Origin: a virus
Length of the DNA stretch: 64,000 nt
IMG/VR virus record: IMGVR_UViG_3300050821_003659
Span: 1 to 64,000 of that record
Strand: one strand, 5' to 3'
Shown in pieces: positions 7,578 through 41,822 of the stretch. The notes under the pieces are model-generated. The model saw nothing but the letters and a program-made list of their open reading frames with translations, had not been told where the DNA came from and ran no database searches. The position numbers and the translations under genes were made by a program. Within the stretch, counting starts at the first letter, position 1. The number at the start of each line of letters is the position of its first letter.

Positions 7578-9707
7578 TTATACGACGGTCGGAAGCGTGC
7601 CCTGTAGACCGCCAGTACTCGGAACGCCTTCAACGGCTTCACTCAGTCCGCTGGCTTTCGCCGCCTCGCGAGTGATGTCGCGTTTGATCCGGTTGTCGCT
7701 GGCTTGATCTTCCAGTTGCTGCTTCTGTGCGAACTTCTGCTGCTCACCTTGCTGCTTGGCGGCGATCTGCTGTTGCATCATCGCGGCCTTAGAGTTCGCA
7801 TCGCGTTTCTGTTTCATGGCATCAGTCATTGGCTTGATGATGTCGTTCTTGTTCTTCCACTCCGAGGCTTCGAGCCACATGCCGATGATCGGCTTGAAGT
7901 CGATGTACTCCTCGTTGATGTCAGCCAGTGACTGCTGAATCTGTGGATTGTCGAGAATCTGGGTCAGCATGACCATCGACTGGGCCATCGTTCGCTTTGC
8001 AGCGAGAGACGATCCAGCGAGAACCTCATACTCGATCTGAGCGTTGTGGAACTCGTCCAGTTTGAAGTCCTGAAGGAAGTCGTCACCCTGCTCTTTGCCG
8101 AGGATGTGGTAGATCGCGGCGTCTGACATGATATTGAACACCATCATGTCGATGACACCGAGGAACGGTTTGAAGACCTGCTCGATGAAGTTGTCCAGAG
8201 GGCCATCGAGACGAGTTGCACTTGCACCCGCGAGGATGTTCGCACCACCAGCCGTGCGACCCATTGAGGATCGCGGCCCAGCAGACGAGCCTTGCACCAA
8301 CATCTGATCTGCACCAGACGAGGACTCGGTCGCTTGCTCAGACTCTTTCAGAGCCGCCCAAATGTCGGCGGGCATCTTCGGAGTTTCCAGCAACTTGTAA
8401 GACTTCTCGACATCCGTCACCGACATGATCTTGCCAAGTCCGGTGCGGATCGTCTGCGTAGGAGCGTTGTCGTCTCGGTTACGCAGGTAAATCGGGTTGA
8501 CGCCGTAAGACAAAATCTTCAGGATGGCGTTGATGGTTCCCTGATCGACGCGTTGGTTCTGACCAACGATGAGTCCAAGACCCATGCCGTAGAACGCACG
8601 CGGACGGTTCCACCAGTTTGCCGAGAGGAACGGGATTCGTTTGAACTCGTTCTTGCCCGAGTAGATAACCTTGTCTTGGTTAAGAACCATGATCTTCTGG
8701 CCCTTGTCCCAATACTCAAGAACTTCCAGCTTCGTCCGTAGAGGATCGGGGCTGGACTTCACGTTATTCTTCTCGGCGTGATGAACACCACCGTCGATGT
8801 AAGTGGCTTGCTCTGTCTCCAGAGTTTGTGCCTTCGGCGGATTGTCCCACACGGATTTGAGTGCGGACGCTGCGGGGATTTTCCATCCCTTCAGGGCCTC
8901 ACTTGAATCTCCGTCTGCTCGTGCCTGTTCGATTGCTTTTCGCAGGTCTTCGAGTTGATACCAGTCCATGTATCGGACATCGACCACCCAACCTGCCTGT
9001 CGAATGTCGCTCACCGCGAGTTGCGGATCGACCAGCACCTTGTCCAGCGGACGCCACTCGAAGAACGGAATCGGCAGAGTCTTGCTTGTCTCTGTGATGT
9101 CCGGTGGTGCGTCTGTCGGAAGGAAGGTCGTATCTGCTACCGTGGCGGGATCGCCGTTTGCGATCTTCGCGACTGTCGCCTTACGTTTGCGGGTCGTGAT
9201 CTCTTGCCAATCATAACCCCACTTGAAAATGCTTGTGCCCAGATGTGCCATCTGCTCAAGGCCCCACTTAGTCTGGGTTTTGAACTGGCATTGATCTAGG
9301 ATGAAAGAGAAGATCGCGGTCTTCGCGTCTACCACTTTCTGGCTCGTGCCGGGGCGGGGCCGCATCAACATCGGAGGATCGTCGTAAAACAATCCCTTGT
9401 AGAGTTGCGGTACGACCGCGTTGCAGACCTTGGCGACAGTGAAACGCTGCACGTTCGGTTCAAGAACGTACGTGTTCTCGTACACTGTCATTGGGCGAGG
9501 CGATTGGTACAGAAGGTCTGCGTCTCGCCACAGTAATGTCCACTGGCGGTTGGCAATGAATGCCTTCGCCATCGCTGCTGACTGCACCACGAGGGCAAGT
9601 TCCTTATCGACAGGAAGTTCGCCTTGAAGGTTGAAGTCAGATGCTTGCAACGTTGCGTTCGGGTTCCCATCAGGAACGATACCAACACTGTCTACGATTT
9701 CTGCCAT
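7578..9707 (-). CDS. portal protein (P22-like, long)
   Basis: 709 aa after terminase; VLEYW, FYGMG motifs, Gln-rich C-terminal coiled coil. Confidence 0.85.
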   Translation of the reverse strand: MAEIVDSVGIVPDGNPNATLQASDFNLQGELPVDKELALVVQSAAMAKAFIANRQWTLLWRDADLLYQSPRPMTVYENTYVLEPNVQRFTVAKVCNAVVPQLYKGLFYDDPPMLMRPRPGTSQKVVDAKTAIFSFILDQCQFKTQTKWGLEQMAHLGTSIFKWGYDWQEITTRKRKATVAKIANGDPATVADTTFLPTDAPPDITETSKTLPIPFFEWRPLDKVLVDPQLAVSDIRQAGWVVDVRYMDWYQLEDLRKAIEQARADGDSSEALKGWKIPAASALKSVWDNPPKAQTLETEQATYIDGGVHHAEKNNVKSSPDPLRTKLEVLEYWDKGQKIMVLNQDKVIYSGKNEFKRIPFLSANWWNRPRAFYGMGLGLIVGQNQRVDQGTINAILKILSYGVNPIYLRNRDDNAPTQTIRTGLGKIMSVTDVEKSYKLLETPKMPADIWAALKESEQATESSSGADQMLVQGSSAGPRSSMGRTAGGANILAGASATRLDGPLDNFIEQVFKPFLGVIDMMVFNIMSDAAIYHILGKEQGDDFLQDFKLDEFHNAQIEYEVLAGSSLAAKRTMAQSMVMLTQILDNPQIQQSLADINEEYIDFKPIIGMWLEASEWKNKNDIIKPMTDAMKQKRDANSKAAMMQQQIAAKQQGEQQKFAQKQQLEDQASDNRIKRDITREAAKASGLSEAVEGVPSTGGLQGTLPTVV

Positions 9708-9718
9708 ATCGTCCCTTT

Positions 9719-11722
9719 CTAGGAGAATAGATCACCGAGGGGGTCGTGTGCCGCCTCGTATGCGTCCATCGCAGCTTGCTGAGCTAGCTGGCTGGGTGCC
9801 ATGTCAGGAAATTCTAGGGCCGCGTTGCTGATGTTGTGCTTCGAGTACTTCCCGTCGCAGTGCATCAGGTCGTGAAAGTTTTTCATCTTCACGTCGGCAA
9901 CGAACTCCGAACTCGACTCCGTCGTCTTCCCTTCGATGTCAGCGTATGACCCGAACTGGTTGATGAGGATTGCCAGCGAGTCCACGATGTCATCGTGAAC
10001 GCCCGCTGCGGTGCCGAACTTCGATAGCTCGTCGTACAGGTCTTCCAGACTCGGACAGGTGTTGACGAATCGCAACCTGTCGTCTCCGAGGAATCGGAGT
10101 ACTGGCCCTGCCTTAGTTTTCTTAGAGGAGGCTTTGCTGCCCTGTCCAAGCGGAACCATCTGGATCGGCACGCGAATCTTCAGCTTGTCCATCTCTCGAT
10201 AAACTTCACGCTGGACATATTTCTCTGCTTTGCCAGTGTCCTCGATGCAGATTCGTTTCGGTCGCCATTGCAACGCCGTCGCTGCGATCATCGCGGGCAG
10301 TTCGTACTCATTGAACTTCCCACGTTTCATGTCGATGATGTAAAACCGTCCGCCGTAAATCAGGGCGGTGATGATGACCGTGTAGTCCGCCCAACTCTTC
10401 GTAGAGTAAGCGGTGTCGATGCAGGTGACGATCATTCCGGTTCCCGGCAGTTCTGCCGCGTTCACGGTGCGACGGATCAGCAGTTCCCGAGGGAACTTGA
10501 TGACGTGCATCTGTGTCGGATCATTCAAATACTTGATCGCGAACCACGGATCGGTCTTGCGGAGGTAGCGGAGTTTTTCGTACGTCAGTGAGTGCGGATT
10601 CCCCGGTTCGTTGAACCAGAGATCGTAATCACCTTCCGTCATCTCCTCTTCGATCTTGCCCGCCTTGCGTGCGGCTTCATTAGCCCACCACGCTGCACGG
10701 ATGTAAACCTCCATCGGGAACTCTTCGCCTTCAGTGGCGTACTTGTCCCGGTTCTTAATGTCCTGCCCGTACGTGTCTTCCGAGTCGTACCACGTTCCAA
10801 TCTTGTCGTAAAATCCGAACGGGTGCAAGATGGCCTTATCGATGCTGACCTTCTTGTTGACATTTCTCATCCGGTCTACGGTCTGAGAGTTTTCTTCGGT
10901 GACCACGTCATCGAGTTTCAGAATGCAGACGTGCCATCCAGCAAGGTTCTGCTCGATAGATGCTGCGAACACCGTAGTCTCTTTTTCAACCTGACTTACT
11001 GCGGGGGTTTGATACTCCGCGTTCTGTCCGGTTGCCACGGGAATGCAGTGCTCAGGAAACAACACCTGAAATAAACTGGGTGTGCCGTCGTTCATCCGGC
11101 GAGGGCGTAACGCCTTCTTGCCGAACAAGTCCACTGTGCCACCCTCTTCGAGCGTGAAGTGTCCCTTGATCTCGCCAACGAAGTCATTCGCCAACGAGAG
11201 AACGCCCGTGAGCACGAGGATCGTGATCTCGGGGAAGCAGATGATCCACTGAACGCAGTCTGCCATGTCGATTGACGACTTGAAGCCGCCACGAGGCACG
11301 AGCAGAAGGCGTTCCTTCTTGCCCAACTTGTCAACCTCGTACTTCGCAGCGAATGCTTTGAAGTTCGGCTGTGTCGGGTCTTTGCGGACGAAAAACTTAT
11401 TGCAGATTTCCTCGTGAGTGTTGTGAGCCTGTCCGTCCGTCCAGATGTACTCGTGGTCGGTCGTGTCCTTGTACTTCTCCAGCAGTTTGCAGAGGAAGTA
11501 CAGGTTGGTCTGTGCCATGAAGCGATAGCGGGCGACTTTGTCCGCGTCGAGCAGGTCGTACAGCTTGCAGACCTTAGCGAGTTTTTCCTGTTGCTCGGGA
11601 ATCAAGCGGCTGACGCTCTGATTCGCTAGTTTCTGAAAATCCTCGGCTGGCATGTCCCGATACTGGTAGTTCTTGTCCTGCTTGTGCTTGTTGAACAACT
11701 CTTCCAAGTATTCGGGCTTCAC
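9719..11722 (-). CDS. terL: terminase large subunit
   Basis: Walker A PRGGFKSS, Walker B LKLDD, IGT motif III, nuclease CIDTA/ADYT and HDDIVDS. Confidence 0.9.
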   Translation of the reverse strand: MKPEYLEELFNKHKQDKNYQYRDMPAEDFQKLANQSVSRLIPEQQEKLAKVCKLYDLLDADKVARYRFMAQTNLYFLCKLLEKYKDTTDHEYIWTDGQAHNTHEEICNKFFVRKDPTQPNFKAFAAKYEVDKLGKKERLLLVPRGGFKSSIDMADCVQWIICFPEITILVLTGVLSLANDFVGEIKGHFTLEEGGTVDLFGKKALRPRRMNDGTPSLFQVLFPEHCIPVATGQNAEYQTPAVSQVEKETTVFAASIEQNLAGWHVCILKLDDVVTEENSQTVDRMRNVNKKVSIDKAILHPFGFYDKIGTWYDSEDTYGQDIKNRDKYATEGEEFPMEVYIRAAWWANEAARKAGKIEEEMTEGDYDLWFNEPGNPHSLTYEKLRYLRKTDPWFAIKYLNDPTQMHVIKFPRELLIRRTVNAAELPGTGMIVTCIDTAYSTKSWADYTVIITALIYGGRFYIIDMKRGKFNEYELPAMIAATALQWRPKRICIEDTGKAEKYVQREVYREMDKLKIRVPIQMVPLGQGSKASSKKTKAGPVLRFLGDDRLRFVNTCPSLEDLYDELSKFGTAAGVHDDIVDSLAILINQFGSYADIEGKTTESSSEFVADVKMKNFHDLMHCDGKYSKHNISNAALEFPDMAPSQLAQQAAMDAYEAAHDPLGDLFS

Positions 11723-37631: not shown

Positions 37632-37729
37632 CGAGGCTAGTAGCCTCGCACAGCATCACGACGAACGCTGGCCTTGCCTGAGCAATCACCTTGGCCTATA
37701 TCGTGGTGCTGTGTGAGTCTTCTGACTCT
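37632..37729 (+). ncRNA. intergenic three-stem RNA motif, copy 1
   Basis: CGAGGCTAGTAGCCTCG hairpin, CACAGCATCACGA/TCGTGGTGCTGTG stem, GAGTC/GACTC hairpin. Confidence 0.6.
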
Positions 37730-37739
37730 GGAGATTACA

Positions 37740-38129
37740 GTGCTGAGCAAACATCGCAGACAGATGTCACCCGCTGAGATACGATTCGCGGAGACTACGG
37801 TTCACGCAGTGGACACGTGGTGCTTCGACAACGATCACCTGCTACAACGCATGCAGCAGAAGCAGATCAGCAAGAAGGACGCGGTACTCGCTGCGAAGTA
37901 CGGCGAAGTCATCCGCGTTCAAGACGACGGTCGCGTGGTAATGCGGCTGATGCGACCAACGCAGCCGTTCGCGACTGACAAGGTCGGCACCGTCGTTTGC
38001 GTCTCGCTGCTCGACAAGACAATCGTCACCGCATGGCACAATGACCCGAAAGACAATCACATGTCTGCGGGCTTGGATGCGTACACTTGGCAGGTCAACG
38101 TCATCGAATATCTGAGGAGCATACAATGA
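37740..38129 (+). CDS. hypothetical protein (possible RelE/DUF4258-like RNase fold)
   Basis: HLLQRMQQKQI...IVTAW pattern; GGAG RBS. Confidence 0.45.
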   Translation: MLSKHRRQMSPAEIRFAETTVHAVDTWCFDNDHLLQRMQQKQISKKDAVLAAKYGEVIRVQDDGRVVMRLMRPTQPFATDKVGTVVCVSLLDKTIVTAWHNDPKDNHMSAGLDAYTWQVNVIEYLRSIQ

Positions 38130-39679
38130 AAACTTTCATCGAGTTGTTCACCGACGCCCGTGCGGTATCGACGCCGTCAGTCGCTATCAAGACCTTCGAC
38201 GCAACGTCTAGCATCCTCGCTGTGCAGAACAGCATGTCCCCTGAGGAAGCTGAGTTGACGCCGTTCATCACGTGGGACGCGATACACGGTCTGCGTGGTC
38301 TGACTGACGCGGGCACCGAAGCACTCGCTACGATGTGCAACGATGCCAGCGTGCCTGAGGTTGGTATCTCATGCGATCTGCCCACCGCACTCGGCATCCT
38401 CGAACGTGCGAAGCAGGATGTCATCGCCTTCATCCACAATCCACAGTTGGTGTGGAACGAAGCGAAGTCGGTCGTGCAAGGGTACGCGAACCTTCGCAAC
38501 GACTACAAGGCACGCGGCAACATGGTCGTCACACTCTTCGGAGTTGGCGACACGATGCCCATCGAACTCCAGCAAGACACGCTGGTGCTCGAACACCCAC
38601 TGCCCACGCGTGACGAACTCGCGAAGATCGTGCGAGAGACGTACGCGTACGCATACAACAGCGACCCCAAGAAGTACAAGGCGTGCAAGACAGTCGATGA
38701 GACGGTCGTTGCACTCGCGGTCGATGCACTGATCGGTCTGCCAGCGTTCCCTGCTGAGCAGAGCACAGCGATGTGCCTGAACAAAGAGTCTGGCGTGCTC
38801 GACATCGTCACACTCTGGGATCGCAAGAAGACAATCGTCGGACAACGCAAGGGCTTGACCTACCGCACAGGCGGGCTGAAGCTGCACGACCTGTACGGCG
38901 TCGAATCGTTCAAGACCTACGGCAAGCGGCTGATGTCTGGCAGCAAGCCTCCGACAGTCATCCTGAGAATGGACGAGATACAACGTCAACTCTCAGGCAA
39001 CGATACAGACTCAAGCGGCGTCAAGGGTGACCTGCTTGGTGAGTGGCTGACGTGGATCAACGACCACGACATCTACTGCACTCTGCTCCTCGGCGTTCCG
39101 GGCAGCAGCAAGTCACACAGCATCGACTGCATCGCTGGTGAGTACGGCAAGCCTGTGATCGACTACTCGATCTCACGCATGCAAGACTCGCTGGTCGGCA
39201 ACAGCAACAAGAACATGACGGTCGCCAACAGCACCGTGGACTCGATCAGCGACAAGAACGTATGGCTTGTAGCTACGGCGAACAAGCTGGACGGTCTGCC
39301 GCCTGAGTTGCTCTCTCGCTTCGCGGACATCTTCTTCTTCGATGCACCGGACGCGGATGAGTTGGCTGGCATCATGAACCTGAAGCTGGAGGCATACAAA
39401 CTCGACACGACTCAGCCGCATCCTGACATGACGGGCTGGACTGGTCGTGACGTGAAGAACTGTGCTGTGAAAGCACAGCGTATGAACTCCACCGTTGTCG
39501 AGTGCGGCGAGTACATCATCCCACTGATGACATCGCAGAAGGAAGCGATGGACAAGTTGAGGCACGATGCTGCTGACCGCTTCCTCAGTGCTTCGAAGCC
39601 CGGAGTATACAAGTACACCGAGCCGACAGTGAAGCACACCGCGACCGTGAAGATCACGGAAGGTCGCAAGATGCGGTAG
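38126..39679 (+). CDS. Ycf46-like AAA+ ATPase with rearranged Walker motifs
   Basis: TWD..GL N-domain, MDEI, GVPGSSKS, VATAN, LPPELLSRF, WTGRDV; ends KITEGRKMR. Confidence 0.85.
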   Translation: MKTFIELFTDARAVSTPSVAIKTFDATSSILAVQNSMSPEEAELTPFITWDAIHGLRGLTDAGTEALATMCNDASVPEVGISCDLPTALGILERAKQDVIAFIHNPQLVWNEAKSVVQGYANLRNDYKARGNMVVTLFGVGDTMPIELQQDTLVLEHPLPTRDELAKIVRETYAYAYNSDPKKYKACKTVDETVVALAVDALIGLPAFPAEQSTAMCLNKESGVLDIVTLWDRKKTIVGQRKGLTYRTGGLKLHDLYGVESFKTYGKRLMSGSKPPTVILRMDEIQRQLSGNDTDSSGVKGDLLGEWLTWINDHDIYCTLLLGVPGSSKSHSIDCIAGEYGKPVIDYSISRMQDSLVGNSNKNMTVANSTVDSISDKNVWLVATANKLDGLPPELLSRFADIFFFDAPDADELAGIMNLKLEAYKLDTTQPHPDMTGWTGRDVKNCAVKAQRMNSTVVECGEYIIPLMTSQKEAMDKLRHDAADRFLSASKPGVYKYTEPTVKHTATVKITEGRKMR

Positions 39680-39820: not shown

Positions 39821-40750
39821 ATGGCGTCACCAGCACCTGCTCTCTCAACTCTGACCACCGACGTAGCGAAACTCGACCTGAGCAAGACTGAGGACTGCGT
39901 CTTCATCACGACCCACTTCACGATGGGCATCGGTCGCATGAAGCAGATCACCAACCTGAACGTCATCACCGACGCAGACCAGAGCCAGTTGCGTCACCAG
40001 AAGAAACTGATCGACTCTCCTGAACTCGAAGAGATCAGAAGCCAAGACGGTTTCCTCAAGCGTTACCTCGACAGCAAGATGTGCCGCTACTCTGAGTCCA
40101 CTGGGTTTCTGCCACACGTGTTCCTGAAAGAAGTTGACCGTGCGATCATCGCGTACCAGACCATCCGGCGTCCGAAGCTGGTGCAGAAGTTCATGGAGAA
40201 GTACCGAGCACTCGAAGCGATGGACTTCGCACCGCTGAAGGCTGCACTCGGTTCGCACTTCAACCGCAGCGACTATCCATCGAGCGAGATCGTAGAGCGT
40301 GGCTTCGACTTCACGTTCTACTACCGTCCGGTTGGCAAGGTAAACCTCGAAGGCATCAGCGATGTCATCATCGCACGCGAAGCCGAAAAGGAACAGGCCA
40401 TCCGCCTCGCAGCCGTCACAGAGTGGCGTGACGCACTGCGGTTGGCTGGTGCAGAGATGGTCGATGCACTCTTCGACATGCTCAAACCTGAGGCTGGCAA
40501 GACGAAGAAGCTGTACGGTTGCCACGTCGAAAAGTTGCAAGAGTTCCTCGCGACGTTGCCTGACCGTGACCTAGCGAACGACACAGACTTCACCAAGAAC
40601 ATGAACGTGGTGAAGGCTGCACTCGAAGGCGTCACCATCGACAGACTGCGAGAGAGCAAGAGCCTCCAGCAGTACGTTGCTGACAAGGTCGCCACGGTTC
40701 GCGAGGACATCAAGAACCTGACAATCGTCTCCGGTCGTCGCTTCCGGTAG
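39821..40750 (+). CDS. DUF3150-like helical protein with C-terminal GRRFR
   Basis: KKLID..EL..I, LG..FN..DYPS pattern next to the AAA+ gene; ends TIVSGRRFR. Confidence 0.6.
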   Translation: MASPAPALSTLTTDVAKLDLSKTEDCVFITTHFTMGIGRMKQITNLNVITDADQSQLRHQKKLIDSPELEEIRSQDGFLKRYLDSKMCRYSESTGFLPHVFLKEVDRAIIAYQTIRRPKLVQKFMEKYRALEAMDFAPLKAALGSHFNRSDYPSSEIVERGFDFTFYYRPVGKVNLEGISDVIIAREAEKEQAIRLAAVTEWRDALRLAGAEMVDALFDMLKPEAGKTKKLYGCHVEKLQEFLATLPDRDLANDTDFTKNMNVVKAALEGVTIDRLRESKSLQQYVADKVATVREDIKNLTIVSGRRFR

Positions 40751-40805: not shown

Positions 40806-41222
40806 ATGGACAAACCATTCGCACCAACGCCGCAGAAGATCGTGACCATCACCATCGACGAGAACGGCGACCAAGTCTTTCTGAAGACCGACTCCGCTGA
40901 TGTGTTTCTCGAACAGGGCGAAGTCATCACACGTCGTGCATCGCACGTTGAACCCGCCGACTTCTGGCGGCGTCTGGCGTTCAGTGTACTTCGTAAACTC
41001 ACACCCGACACGAGCCGCATCGCAGCGTGGACACGCACATGGAACTGCCTCTGGCGTGTGAACACGAAGCCTGTCGGTGGCCCGATACTCACGCACTTCC
41101 ATGTGAAGCCCGAGACGCAGTCGCTGATGTGGGACGCCATCGCGTGGTTCCCCAACAGGCAGGATGCAATCGATGCTGAGGTTCAGTTTCTGAATCGCTG
41201 GTTCGCTGAGAGGACAATCTAA
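40806..41222 (+). CDS. RRASHVEP-family protein of AAA/DUF1257 clusters
   Basis: RRASHVEP, PVGGP.L, F..R..A..AE..L motifs. Confidence 0.65.
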   Translation: MDKPFAPTPQKIVTITIDENGDQVFLKTDSADVFLEQGEVITRRASHVEPADFWRRLAFSVLRKLTPDTSRIAAWTRTWNCLWRVNTKPVGGPILTHFHVKPETQSLMWDAIAWFPNRQDAIDAEVQFLNRWFAERTI

Positions 41223-41629
41223 TGAGTGCATACCACACGCAGAAGACGCAGTACAAAGATCGCGACTGTCTAGTGAAGGCCCTGAACGATCAAGGCTACA
41301 CGACAGTCGAAGTGCATGAAGTCGCGACGAACCTGTACGGTTATCACGGTGACATGCGTTCGCAGAAGGCCAACGTCATCGTCCGCCGTCAGTACGTTGG
41401 ATGTGCAGCGAACGACCTTGGCTTCGTGAAGGCTGAAGACGGCACGTACAGTGCAATCGTCTCTCAGTTCGACAGCGGCAAGCATGACGCGGGCTGGTTC
41501 AAGGGGCTGAAGAAGTCCTACACCGAAGCACGCGACATGAAGACCGCAGCGGCACAGGGTTTCAAGTTCCTCGGCAAGAAGATCGTCGGGGGCAAAGTTC
41601 AACTCCAGTTCGCAGACACGAGGAGCTAA
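41222..41629 (+). CDS. DUF1257 (Ycf35-like) protein
   Basis: MS.Y....T...D...LV.AL...GY, NDLGF....DGTY. Confidence 0.75.
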   Translation: MSAYHTQKTQYKDRDCLVKALNDQGYTTVEVHEVATNLYGYHGDMRSQKANVIVRRQYVGCAANDLGFVKAEDGTYSAIVSQFDSGKHDAGWFKGLKKSYTEARDMKTAAAQGFKFLGKKIVGGKVQLQFADTRS

Positions 41630-41630
41630 C

Positions 41631-41822
41631 ATGGCACTCAAGATAATCACCATCACCATCGATGAAGAGGGCGACCAGACGGTCGATCTCACTGGCTACC
41701 ACGGCAAAGGCTGCGACGCCGTCGCTGATGTCTTCGGTCGAGCACTCGGAGAGACGACCAAGGTCACTCACAAGCCTGAGTTTAACAAGCCAGCGATCAA
41801 CAAGAACCTGCTAAGACACTAG
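41631..41822 (+). CDS. DUF2997-like small protein
   Basis: ITITID..G...V...G..GK.C...LG......KPEF. Confidence 0.75.
   Translation: MALKIITITIDEEGDQTVDLTGYHGKGCDAVADVFGRALGETTKVTHKPEFNKPAINKNLLRH

Follow-up and report, generated by a model that had tools for sequence, protein, structure and literature searches.

Does the AAA-type protein encoded by a phage gene in which the Walker B motif is read ahead of the Walker A motif represent a true rewiring of the AAA core, or does the unusual order have another cause? The question is raised by the gene P0001, which lies in a 64,000-nucleotide stretch of viral DNA (hereafter, the window: positions 1 to 64,000 of the IMG/VR virus record IMGVR_UViG_3300050821_003659) and encodes a protein of 517 amino acids. 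A first-pass annotation of this DNA had proposed that both Walker blocks are complete but transposed, that the P-loop is GxxGxSKS rather than GxxGxGKS, and that a rewired P-loop topology preserves the three-dimensional active site. The analysis presented here leads us to regard P0001 as very probably a real, active AAA domain of the classical type within a two-tier phage protein, in which the β3-α3 unit has been moved along the chain; the ATP site would have remained normal, the assembled protein would act as a ring motor, and the rearrangement would date from an old single event.

Translation of the open reading frame (ORF) bears out the motif order and positions given by that annotation: from its N-terminus the chain passes through Walker B, Walker A, pore loop 1, sensor 1 and the Arg finger in turn (coordinates of these and of all other features are collected in Table 1). 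The gene starts with the ATG at 38126, and its homologues share the start MK(S/T)F. The α0 helix region of P0001 reads LHDLYGVESFKTYGKRLM, including LHDLYGVESFK, and is followed by PTVILRMDEIQRQLSG..DSSGV..EWLTWIND, the Walker B motif (V278-E284) being contained in the segment PTVILRMDEIQRQLSGNDTDSSGVKGDLLGEWLTWINDHD. The Walker A segment, IYCTLLLGVPGSSKS, contains LLLGVPGSSKS, with the motif proper at G323-S330, and runs up to SLVGNS; downstream of pore loop 1 come VWLVATAN, with the sensor 1 residue N386, and LPPELLSRF, with R398. The GxxGxSKS form of the P-loop is present as described, position 328 being Ser in 131, Gly in 102 and Ala in 35 of 276 permuted sequences, which extend down to about 30% identity and underlie all residue counts given below.

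The transposition was examined by comparison with P0272, a normal-order relative of 472 amino acids that emerged from a scan of prokaryote genomes and is encoded at L005:5788-7206 on a 1.8-Mb Desulfobacterales contig (chromosome). The Pfam AAA profile (PF00004) scored P0001 at 32.7 bits against a cut-off of 21.2, its best stretch pairing profile positions 2-46 of 131 with residues 320-364, and matched P0272 over profile positions 1-128 of 131 at 87 bits. Msp1 aligned to residues 319-368 of P0001 and then to 375-446, leaving about 47 Msp1 residues, those carrying its Walker B, unpaired at the usual place. Since a single-sequence search of solved structures returned weak matches (Msp1, E 0.23), a profile was required, and two alignments were used: A2, comprising the permuted family (150 sequences, 30-77% identity to P0001), and A3, the normal-order set. 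The hidden Markov model (HMM) profile of A2 matched P0272 in four pieces, of which the Walker A and Walker B pieces were crossed: HMM positions 15-254 with residues 11-229 (N-domain), 299-355 with 239-295 (Walker A block), 261-300 with 300-342 (Walker B block, 28.5 bits, independent E-value 3.1e-11) and 360-467 with 341-448 (sensor 1 onward). The upstream block is much more than an accidental Asp-Glu pair, since it aligns to the normal-order relative on its own. When alignment columns 275-315 and 316-378 were exchanged in silico, a single piece spanning HMM positions 15-467 was obtained against P0272 at 261.5 bits, as compared with 78 bits for the best single piece before the exchange; the same swap raised the BLASTP score of single sequences against P0272 from 72.8 to 107 bits. 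The family profile also matched both AAA domains of p97/Cdc48 (D1 and D2, PDB) in crossed pieces, with E-values down to 1e-35, so that the crossed local alignments to AAA expected by the first-pass annotation were found with both comparators.

The profile-profile comparison of A2 with A3 by hhalign (probability 100, E 3e-63, 405 columns) was collinear except that on each side about 40 residues, the Walker B block, found no counterpart. Opposite the permuted block lay the short linker that joins α0 to β1 in the normal proteins; their own Walker B block fell at a gap between residues 376 and 377 of the permuted protein. Because the HMM pieces cross and hhalign leaves both Walker B blocks unpaired, the P0001 domain does not align collinearly to a normal AAA domain, and this refuting outcome, one of two named by the first-pass annotation, did not occur.

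The structure prediction that had been suggested agrees with these results. The AlphaFold2 model of P0001, built on A2, reached a mean predicted local distance difference test (pLDDT) score of 96.2 and a predicted template modelling score of 0.90, and the control model of P0272 reached a pLDDT of 84.4. Along the chain of P0001 the model places α0 (residues 260-270; 218-232 in P0272), β3 with the Walker B motif (278-282; 299-304), a short helix after β3 (285-289; 307-310), α3 (299-313; 324-338), β1 (317-323; 241-246), α1 (329-340; 252-263), β2 (344-347; 267-269), α2 (357-375; 282-297), β4 (379-385; 342-349), α4 (393-396; 357-361) and β5 (401-405; 366-370). The control runs α0, β1, α1, β2, α2, β3, α3, β4, α4, β5, so that the two models hold an identical set of elements, the normal AAA one, and solely β3, its short helix and α3 are relocated, to a place between α0 and β1. 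The model of the C-terminal domain aligned with Vps4, spastin and p97 D2 with Z-scores of 15.6-16.1 and a root-mean-square deviation (rmsd) of 2.5-3.4 over about 200-214 residues. The full model (residues 1-486) aligned with p97 D1+D2 (209-763) at Z 17.6 over 399 residues with an rmsd of 4.3, and from this alignment the N-terminal 235 residues appear as an AAA-like domain that lacks a P-loop; the predicted architecture is accordingly a two-tier AAA one with a dead first tier, common to the normal-order relatives. With an aligner bound to chain order, the control and permuted models matched 3cf0_A over 242 (Z 20.9) and 204 residues (Z 15.6), 6g2v over 231 and 199, and 7lmz_C over 430 and 399, respectively; the deficit of the permuted model, about 30-38 aligned residues, is near the size of the moved block.

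Evidence on the placement of the strands was also sought in a mean-field coupling analysis of residues 236-500 in 270 distinct permuted sequences, a small sample with an effective number of sequences of 190. Among the top 60 couplings, 280-381, 285-383 and 310-381 join β3/α3 to β4, 275-342 and 275-378 join the start of β3 (P275) to the starts of β2 and β4, and 321-405 joins β1 to β5, while a cluster linking 299-306 with 350-365 corresponds to the regions of pore loop 2 and pore loop 1. The strand pairs with the highest coupling z-scores were β3-β4 (3.5), β1-β5 (2.9) and β1-β4 (2.7). This pattern fits a predicted sheet of the normal order 5-1-4-3-2 with the moved β3 in its usual slot.

According to the proposed scheme, block B (β3-α3, residues 275-315) would have been relocated from between α2 and β4 to between α0 and β1, which would change three helix-to-strand links: α0 would lead into β3 (formerly β1), α3 into β1 (formerly β4) and α2 into β4 (formerly β3). 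The strands of the AAA sheet are all parallel, so that the strand-to-helix loops lie on the nucleotide side and the helix-to-strand loops on the far side. The three altered loops would thus all face away from the nucleotide, from which we infer the sheet 5-1-4-3-2 and an ATP site as in any AAA protein; the crossover direction across the sheet being unchanged, each helix would keep its usual face. The ATP site would be formed by K329/S330 from block A, D283/E284 from block B, N386, and R398 from the neighbouring subunit. Of the first-pass proposal of a rewired topology that preserves the three-dimensional site, the rewired chain order therefore stands, and the preservation in space finds indirect support in the AlphaFold2 model, coevolution and the loss of aligned residues.

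The permuted order is widespread. A word-indexed search yielded 722 relatives, the best 120 of them nearly all full length at 51-94% identity and coming from many samples and assemblers, and an exhaustive search, with clustering at 50% identity, yielded 864 clusters at E<1e-30; of the 150 that were listed, almost all aligned with nearly the entire P0001 in a single stretch. Where both simple motifs could be read, DSSG stood ahead of the P-loop in 195 of 195 sequences. Scored against native and in-silico swapped profiles, all 270 family proteins and all 12 independently fetched loci came out as native, i.e., permuted; these loci include gp103 of the cultured Tunturiibacter phage Tunturi_3 (35% identity), a contig of a Bacteroidetes metagenome-assembled genome (MAG) and a Myxococcales MAG contig. 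Homologues of the same order, which the first-pass annotation had called for, thus exist in quantity: in a census of 412 sequences that used one profile per block, the order was B-A in 284 and A-B in 126, and no other arrangement was seen. No RNA dataset occurred among the listed holders of the gene.

The catalytic residues are nearly invariant across the family. In the Walker B motif, E284 is kept in 276/276 sequences and D283 in 266, the remainder having Glu; in the Walker A motif, G326 is found in 276, K329 in 275 and Ser or Thr at position 330 in 275; the sensor 1 residue N386 is present in 275 and the Arg finger R398 in 274. Such conservation speaks in favour of an active ATPase rather than a pseudo-enzyme.

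By far the strongest coupling in the mean-field analysis (6.39, the next being 3.95) joined positions 397 and 441. Position 397 is the first Arg-finger position, belonging to R-x-G-R in normal relatives, and the equivalent of position 441 is Ala in classical AAA proteins and the sensor-2 Arg in other AAA+ clades. The combination S397, R441 was found in 151 and R397, A441 in 102 of the 276 sequences, Arg at both positions in none and Arg at neither in one. Parsimony on the 276-tip tree gave about 25 switches for each character and 26 for the pair; a cautious count gave 6 disjoint cross-state pairs at no less than 50% identity and 18 at no less than 45%, and the median identity within the R397/A441 state was 39%. 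The Ser of the GxxGxSKS P-loop belongs to a co-varying set, R281 (38966-38968), S328 (39107-39109), S397 and R441, which is the commonest state (122/276, including P0001); the majority of the remaining members combine an aromatic residue at 281 with Gly or Ala at 328, R397 and A441. R281 is also coupled with D313. Within an AAA ring, the γ-phosphate is where the finger of a subunit comes up against the lid of its neighbour; the simplest reading of the 397-441 coupling would therefore be a single guanidinium that either of the two adjoining subunits can contribute, and, read in this way, it would lend indirect support to ring assembly.

As to the origin of the order, a tree built from the de-permuted alignment separated 59 permuted from 35 normal tips in a clean split (support 0.997). 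Such a split fits a single event, and the rewiring would then be single, old and family-wide. To our knowledge, every other AAA protein has the normal order, and by parsimony the permuted order is therefore taken as derived. The simplest route would be a tandem duplication converting [A][B] into [A][B][A][B], after which the outermost blocks, an A at the front and a B at the end, were lost. The normal form is common, P0272 having about 7300 relatives, mostly labelled 'AAA family ATPase', and it also occurs in three viral contigs (L017-L019). The motifs of P0272 read GIPGCGKS, SLVGQSE, VTVFIDEIEKQFAG...TDGGTT...FLTFMQD, IFVVATAN and LPPEMLRAGRFD, and its gene is followed on the 3' side by genes for DUF1257, DUF2997, DUF3150 and SSB (Pfam SSB, E 7e-26). 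The module at L005:3902-9246 lies between the SSB gene and a long opposite-strand ORF that is DNA methyltransferase-like by eye; these flanks suggest a mobile element or prophage remnant.

The window having been taken from a metagenomic virus record, the block order might have arisen as a misjoin or chimera in the source contig, and the sole near-identical holder may be the source sample itself, a contig from the probable source run being identical. Against this, Logan contigs from three runs of other studies, at about 91-94% identity, cross the gene or all three new junctions without joints, and the permuted order recurs in the 284 sequences of the census, from many sources and assemblers and with the cultured Tunturi_3 gp103 among them. 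There is no sign of the assembly rearrangement that had been named as a possible refutation, and an artefact of this kind is refuted for practical purposes. Hardly more credible, though not as remote, is the possibility that the rewiring destroyed catalysis and that the protein is a pseudo-ATPase kept as a scaffold for partners. It would accommodate the GxxGxSKS P-loop and the Ser at the first Arg-finger position of P0001, but E284, K329, N386 and R398 vary hardly or not at all, even in sequences as distant as about 30% identity, and the Arg missing at 397 is made up by that at 441, as is expected under selection for catalysis.

A third alternative, unlikely although somewhat less so than the former two, holds that β3 occupies a new place in the sheet, or that the upstream Asp-Glu block is left over from the degenerate first domain, the ATP site being built differently. 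The β3-β2 coupling is indeed weak (z 1.4), and the active site of the subclade is unusual in several residues (R281, S328, S397 and R441). Block B, however, follows the α0 of the second domain and is homologous to the second-domain Walker B of the normal relative (independent E-value 3e-11, and hhalign); among the strands, β3 is coupled most strongly to β4, its neighbour in the normal fold as well, P275 being coupled to the starts of β2 and β4; and the AlphaFold2 model has the normal element set at very high confidence. Besides the weak β3-β2 coupling, several points weigh against our interpretation of a relocated β3-α3 unit with a normal ATP site and a single derived origin. AlphaFold2 and the coupling analysis draw on coevolution signal of a similar kind and are not fully independent; with Ser before the P-loop Lys and Ser at one Arg finger, the kinetics in the P0001 subclade may differ from those of a textbook AAA protein; the direction of change comes from parsimony, the tree having no outgroup; and none of the duplication intermediates ABA, BAB or ABAB was seen among the 412 sequences. 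Considering these points together with the alternatives, we retain the relocated β3-α3 unit as the preferred explanation. The data show the order along the chain, its conservation, the homology of the moved block and the predicted secondary structure; that the site is identical in three dimensions, that ATP is hydrolysed, that rings form and by which route the order arose is inferred from them.

Compared with known systems, P0001 can be assigned on sequence and gene neighbourhood to the COG0464-type ('SpoVK/Ycf46/Vps4 family') AAA group with DUF1257/DUF2997/DUF3150 partners. It has in common with the normal-order members the degenerate N-domain, α0, all AAA motifs, the lid, the C-terminal helices and the partner genes, down to matching motif wording (DEIEKQFAG...D.SG...LTWMQD); their order is Walker A, pore loop 1, Walker B, sensor 1, whereas in P0001 the Walker B block comes first, and they retain the R-x-G-R fingers with Ala or Ser at the sensor-2 position, where P0001 has S397 and R441. 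The classical AAA clade (p97/Cdc48, AFG2/Drg1, Rix7, Vps4, spastin) matches the predicted fold and shares Walker A and B, sensor 1, the Arg finger and the Φ-V-G pore loop, at 12-18% identity; it differs in the chain order of β3-α3, and in P0001 the first domain is without a P-loop. The lid of P0001, which reads WTGRD, also departs from this clade, which has Ala and thus no sensor-2 Arg at the place of R441; Ala is found there in 102 relatives. The matches to the IteA/IetA anti-phage ATPase (NCBIfam IteA, 20.6 bits against a cut-off of 510; PADLOC IetA, E 4e-4, partial) amount to generic AAA likeness, and this candidate was rejected.

Among P-loop proteins, the circularly permuted GTPases YlqF/RbgA, YjeQ/RsgA and YqeH have the motif order G4-G5-G1-G2-G3 with the three-dimensional site kept. 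These are circular permutations of the whole domain that create new termini, whereas in P0001 an internal block has moved and the ends of the AAA domain are fixed, i.e., the permutation is one of an inner segment. Permuted DNA methyltransferases, which fall into classes by motif order, likewise are Rossmann-like α/β enzymes with natural variants of that order, but belong to another fold class and chemistry and are well documented. Circularly permuted Dam-type enzymes have been mentioned in phages (PMC7824862). A search of the literature, with most subscription journals outside its coverage, retrieved no account in which Walker B stands before Walker A in an AAA domain. It seems probable, with less assurance than we attach to the rewiring itself, that the family represents an undescribed non-circular permutation of the AAA core, with fixed domain ends, a working ATP site in many hundreds of phage lineages and an arginine hopping between positions 397 and 441.

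The window is part of a tailed-phage genome, the IMG/VR record having 75,961 bases and being about 80% complete. From about 19 kb onward, the + strand carries genes for primase, DNA polymerase, exonuclease, RNA ligase, ATP-dependent protease and helicase, and the ATPase gene lies within this block. Of its partners (Table 1), the 309-aa protein gave no direct match to Pfam DUF3150 and is linked to this family via homologues. Tunturi_3 gp96 (L001:11690-12649), annotated as 'HNH endonuclease', matches the 309-aa protein (28% identity, E 6e-18), and its deposited name may be wrong. Genes for DUF1257, DUF2997 and DUF3150-like proteins accompany permuted and normal forms alike (the window, L004 and L005), and the module of the ATPase, the 309-aa and 138-aa proteins, DUF1257 and DUF2997 is kept, its genes rearranged, in phage loci whose ATPases are as little as 31% identical. 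A basic C-terminal tail is common to the ATPase (EGRKMR, 39662-39676) and the product of the next gene (SGRRFR, 40733-40747); R514, K515 and R517 of the ATPase tail are invariant among close relatives. Judging from family membership, our best guess is that P0001 would form a ring-shaped, ATP-driven motor that, with its DUF1257, DUF2997 and DUF3150-like partners, acts on a protein or nucleoprotein substrate by remodelling or unfolding it.

Table 1. Positions in the window of the permuted ATPase gene, its domains and motifs, and neighbouring genes (residue numbers refer to P0001).
Feature	Position	Strand	Evidence or remark
Permuted AAA ATPase gene P0001	38126..39679	+	517 aa, ORF translation; full-length homologues
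N-terminal domain, residues 1 to ~235: AAA-like α/β without P-loop, putative degenerate D1	38126..38830	+	Model alignment to p97 D1+D2; no Walker A visible in sequence
α0 of the active AAA domain, residues 260-270	38903..38935	+	DSSP on AlphaFold2 model; aligns to GGL..LK helix of normal-order relatives
Block B (transposed), residues 275-315: β3 with D283/E284, short helix, DSSG loop (pore loop 2 region), α3	38948..39070	+	Crossed alignment, independent E-value 3.1e-11; model strand 278-282, helix 299-313
Walker B VILRMDE	38957..38977	+	Translation, family conservation
Block A, residues 316-378: β1, P-loop, α1, β2, pore loop 1, α2	39071..39259	+	Profile 299-355 aligns to Walker A region of normal AAA proteins; model
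Walker A GVPGSSKS	39092..39115	+	K329 275/276; G326 invariant
Pore loop 1, L356-V357-G358	39191..39199	+	V357 258/276, G358 274/276; aligns to p97 pore-loop region
β4 ending in sensor 1 N386	39260..39283	+	N386 275/276; model strand 379-385
Arg-finger positions S397 and R398	39314..39319	+	Position 397 Arg in 112/276 relatives; R398 274/276
Helical lid subdomain, residues 407 to ~490, with R441 (39446-39448) at the sensor 2 position	39344..39595	+	Model, structure alignment, family residues
Upstream gene, weak DUF4258 match	37674..38129	+	Stop overlaps ATPase start by 4 bases
309-aa DUF3150-like partner	39821..40750	+	27% identity, E 6e-23, to L004:6173-7108, which matches Pfam DUF3150
138-aa partner, family unassigned	40806..41222	+	Conserved in related phage loci
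DUF1257 (Ycf35-type) partner	41222..41629	+	Pfam E 5e-9, 36.7 bits, above cut-off
DUF2997 partner	41631..41822	+	Pfam E 6e-5, 23.2 bits, just below 24.1-bit cut-off; homologues in related loci 52-57 bits
Head-tail adaptor	7578-9707	-	
Large terminase	9719-11722	-	

Proteins of this kind fall into an annotation blind spot: Pfam covers about one third of the domain, the best PHROGs family for P0001 carries no function, and the NCBIfam search of P0001 gave no family match, so that they are under-called. Few protein folds have received as much study as the AAA+ core, which is usually described with one set chain order; a large natural family with a moved β-α unit would mean that the fold and its composite ATP site depend on placement in three dimensions and not on the connectivity of the chain. 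If the reading of positions 397 and 441 is true, a single family displays, in this toggle, a contrast by which major AAA+ clades are otherwise set apart, and the switch would offer a compact system for telling apart the roles of the trans finger and the cis sensor 2. The matched normal and permuted sister proteins, in turn, would be usable for work on folding, assembly and mechanochemistry.

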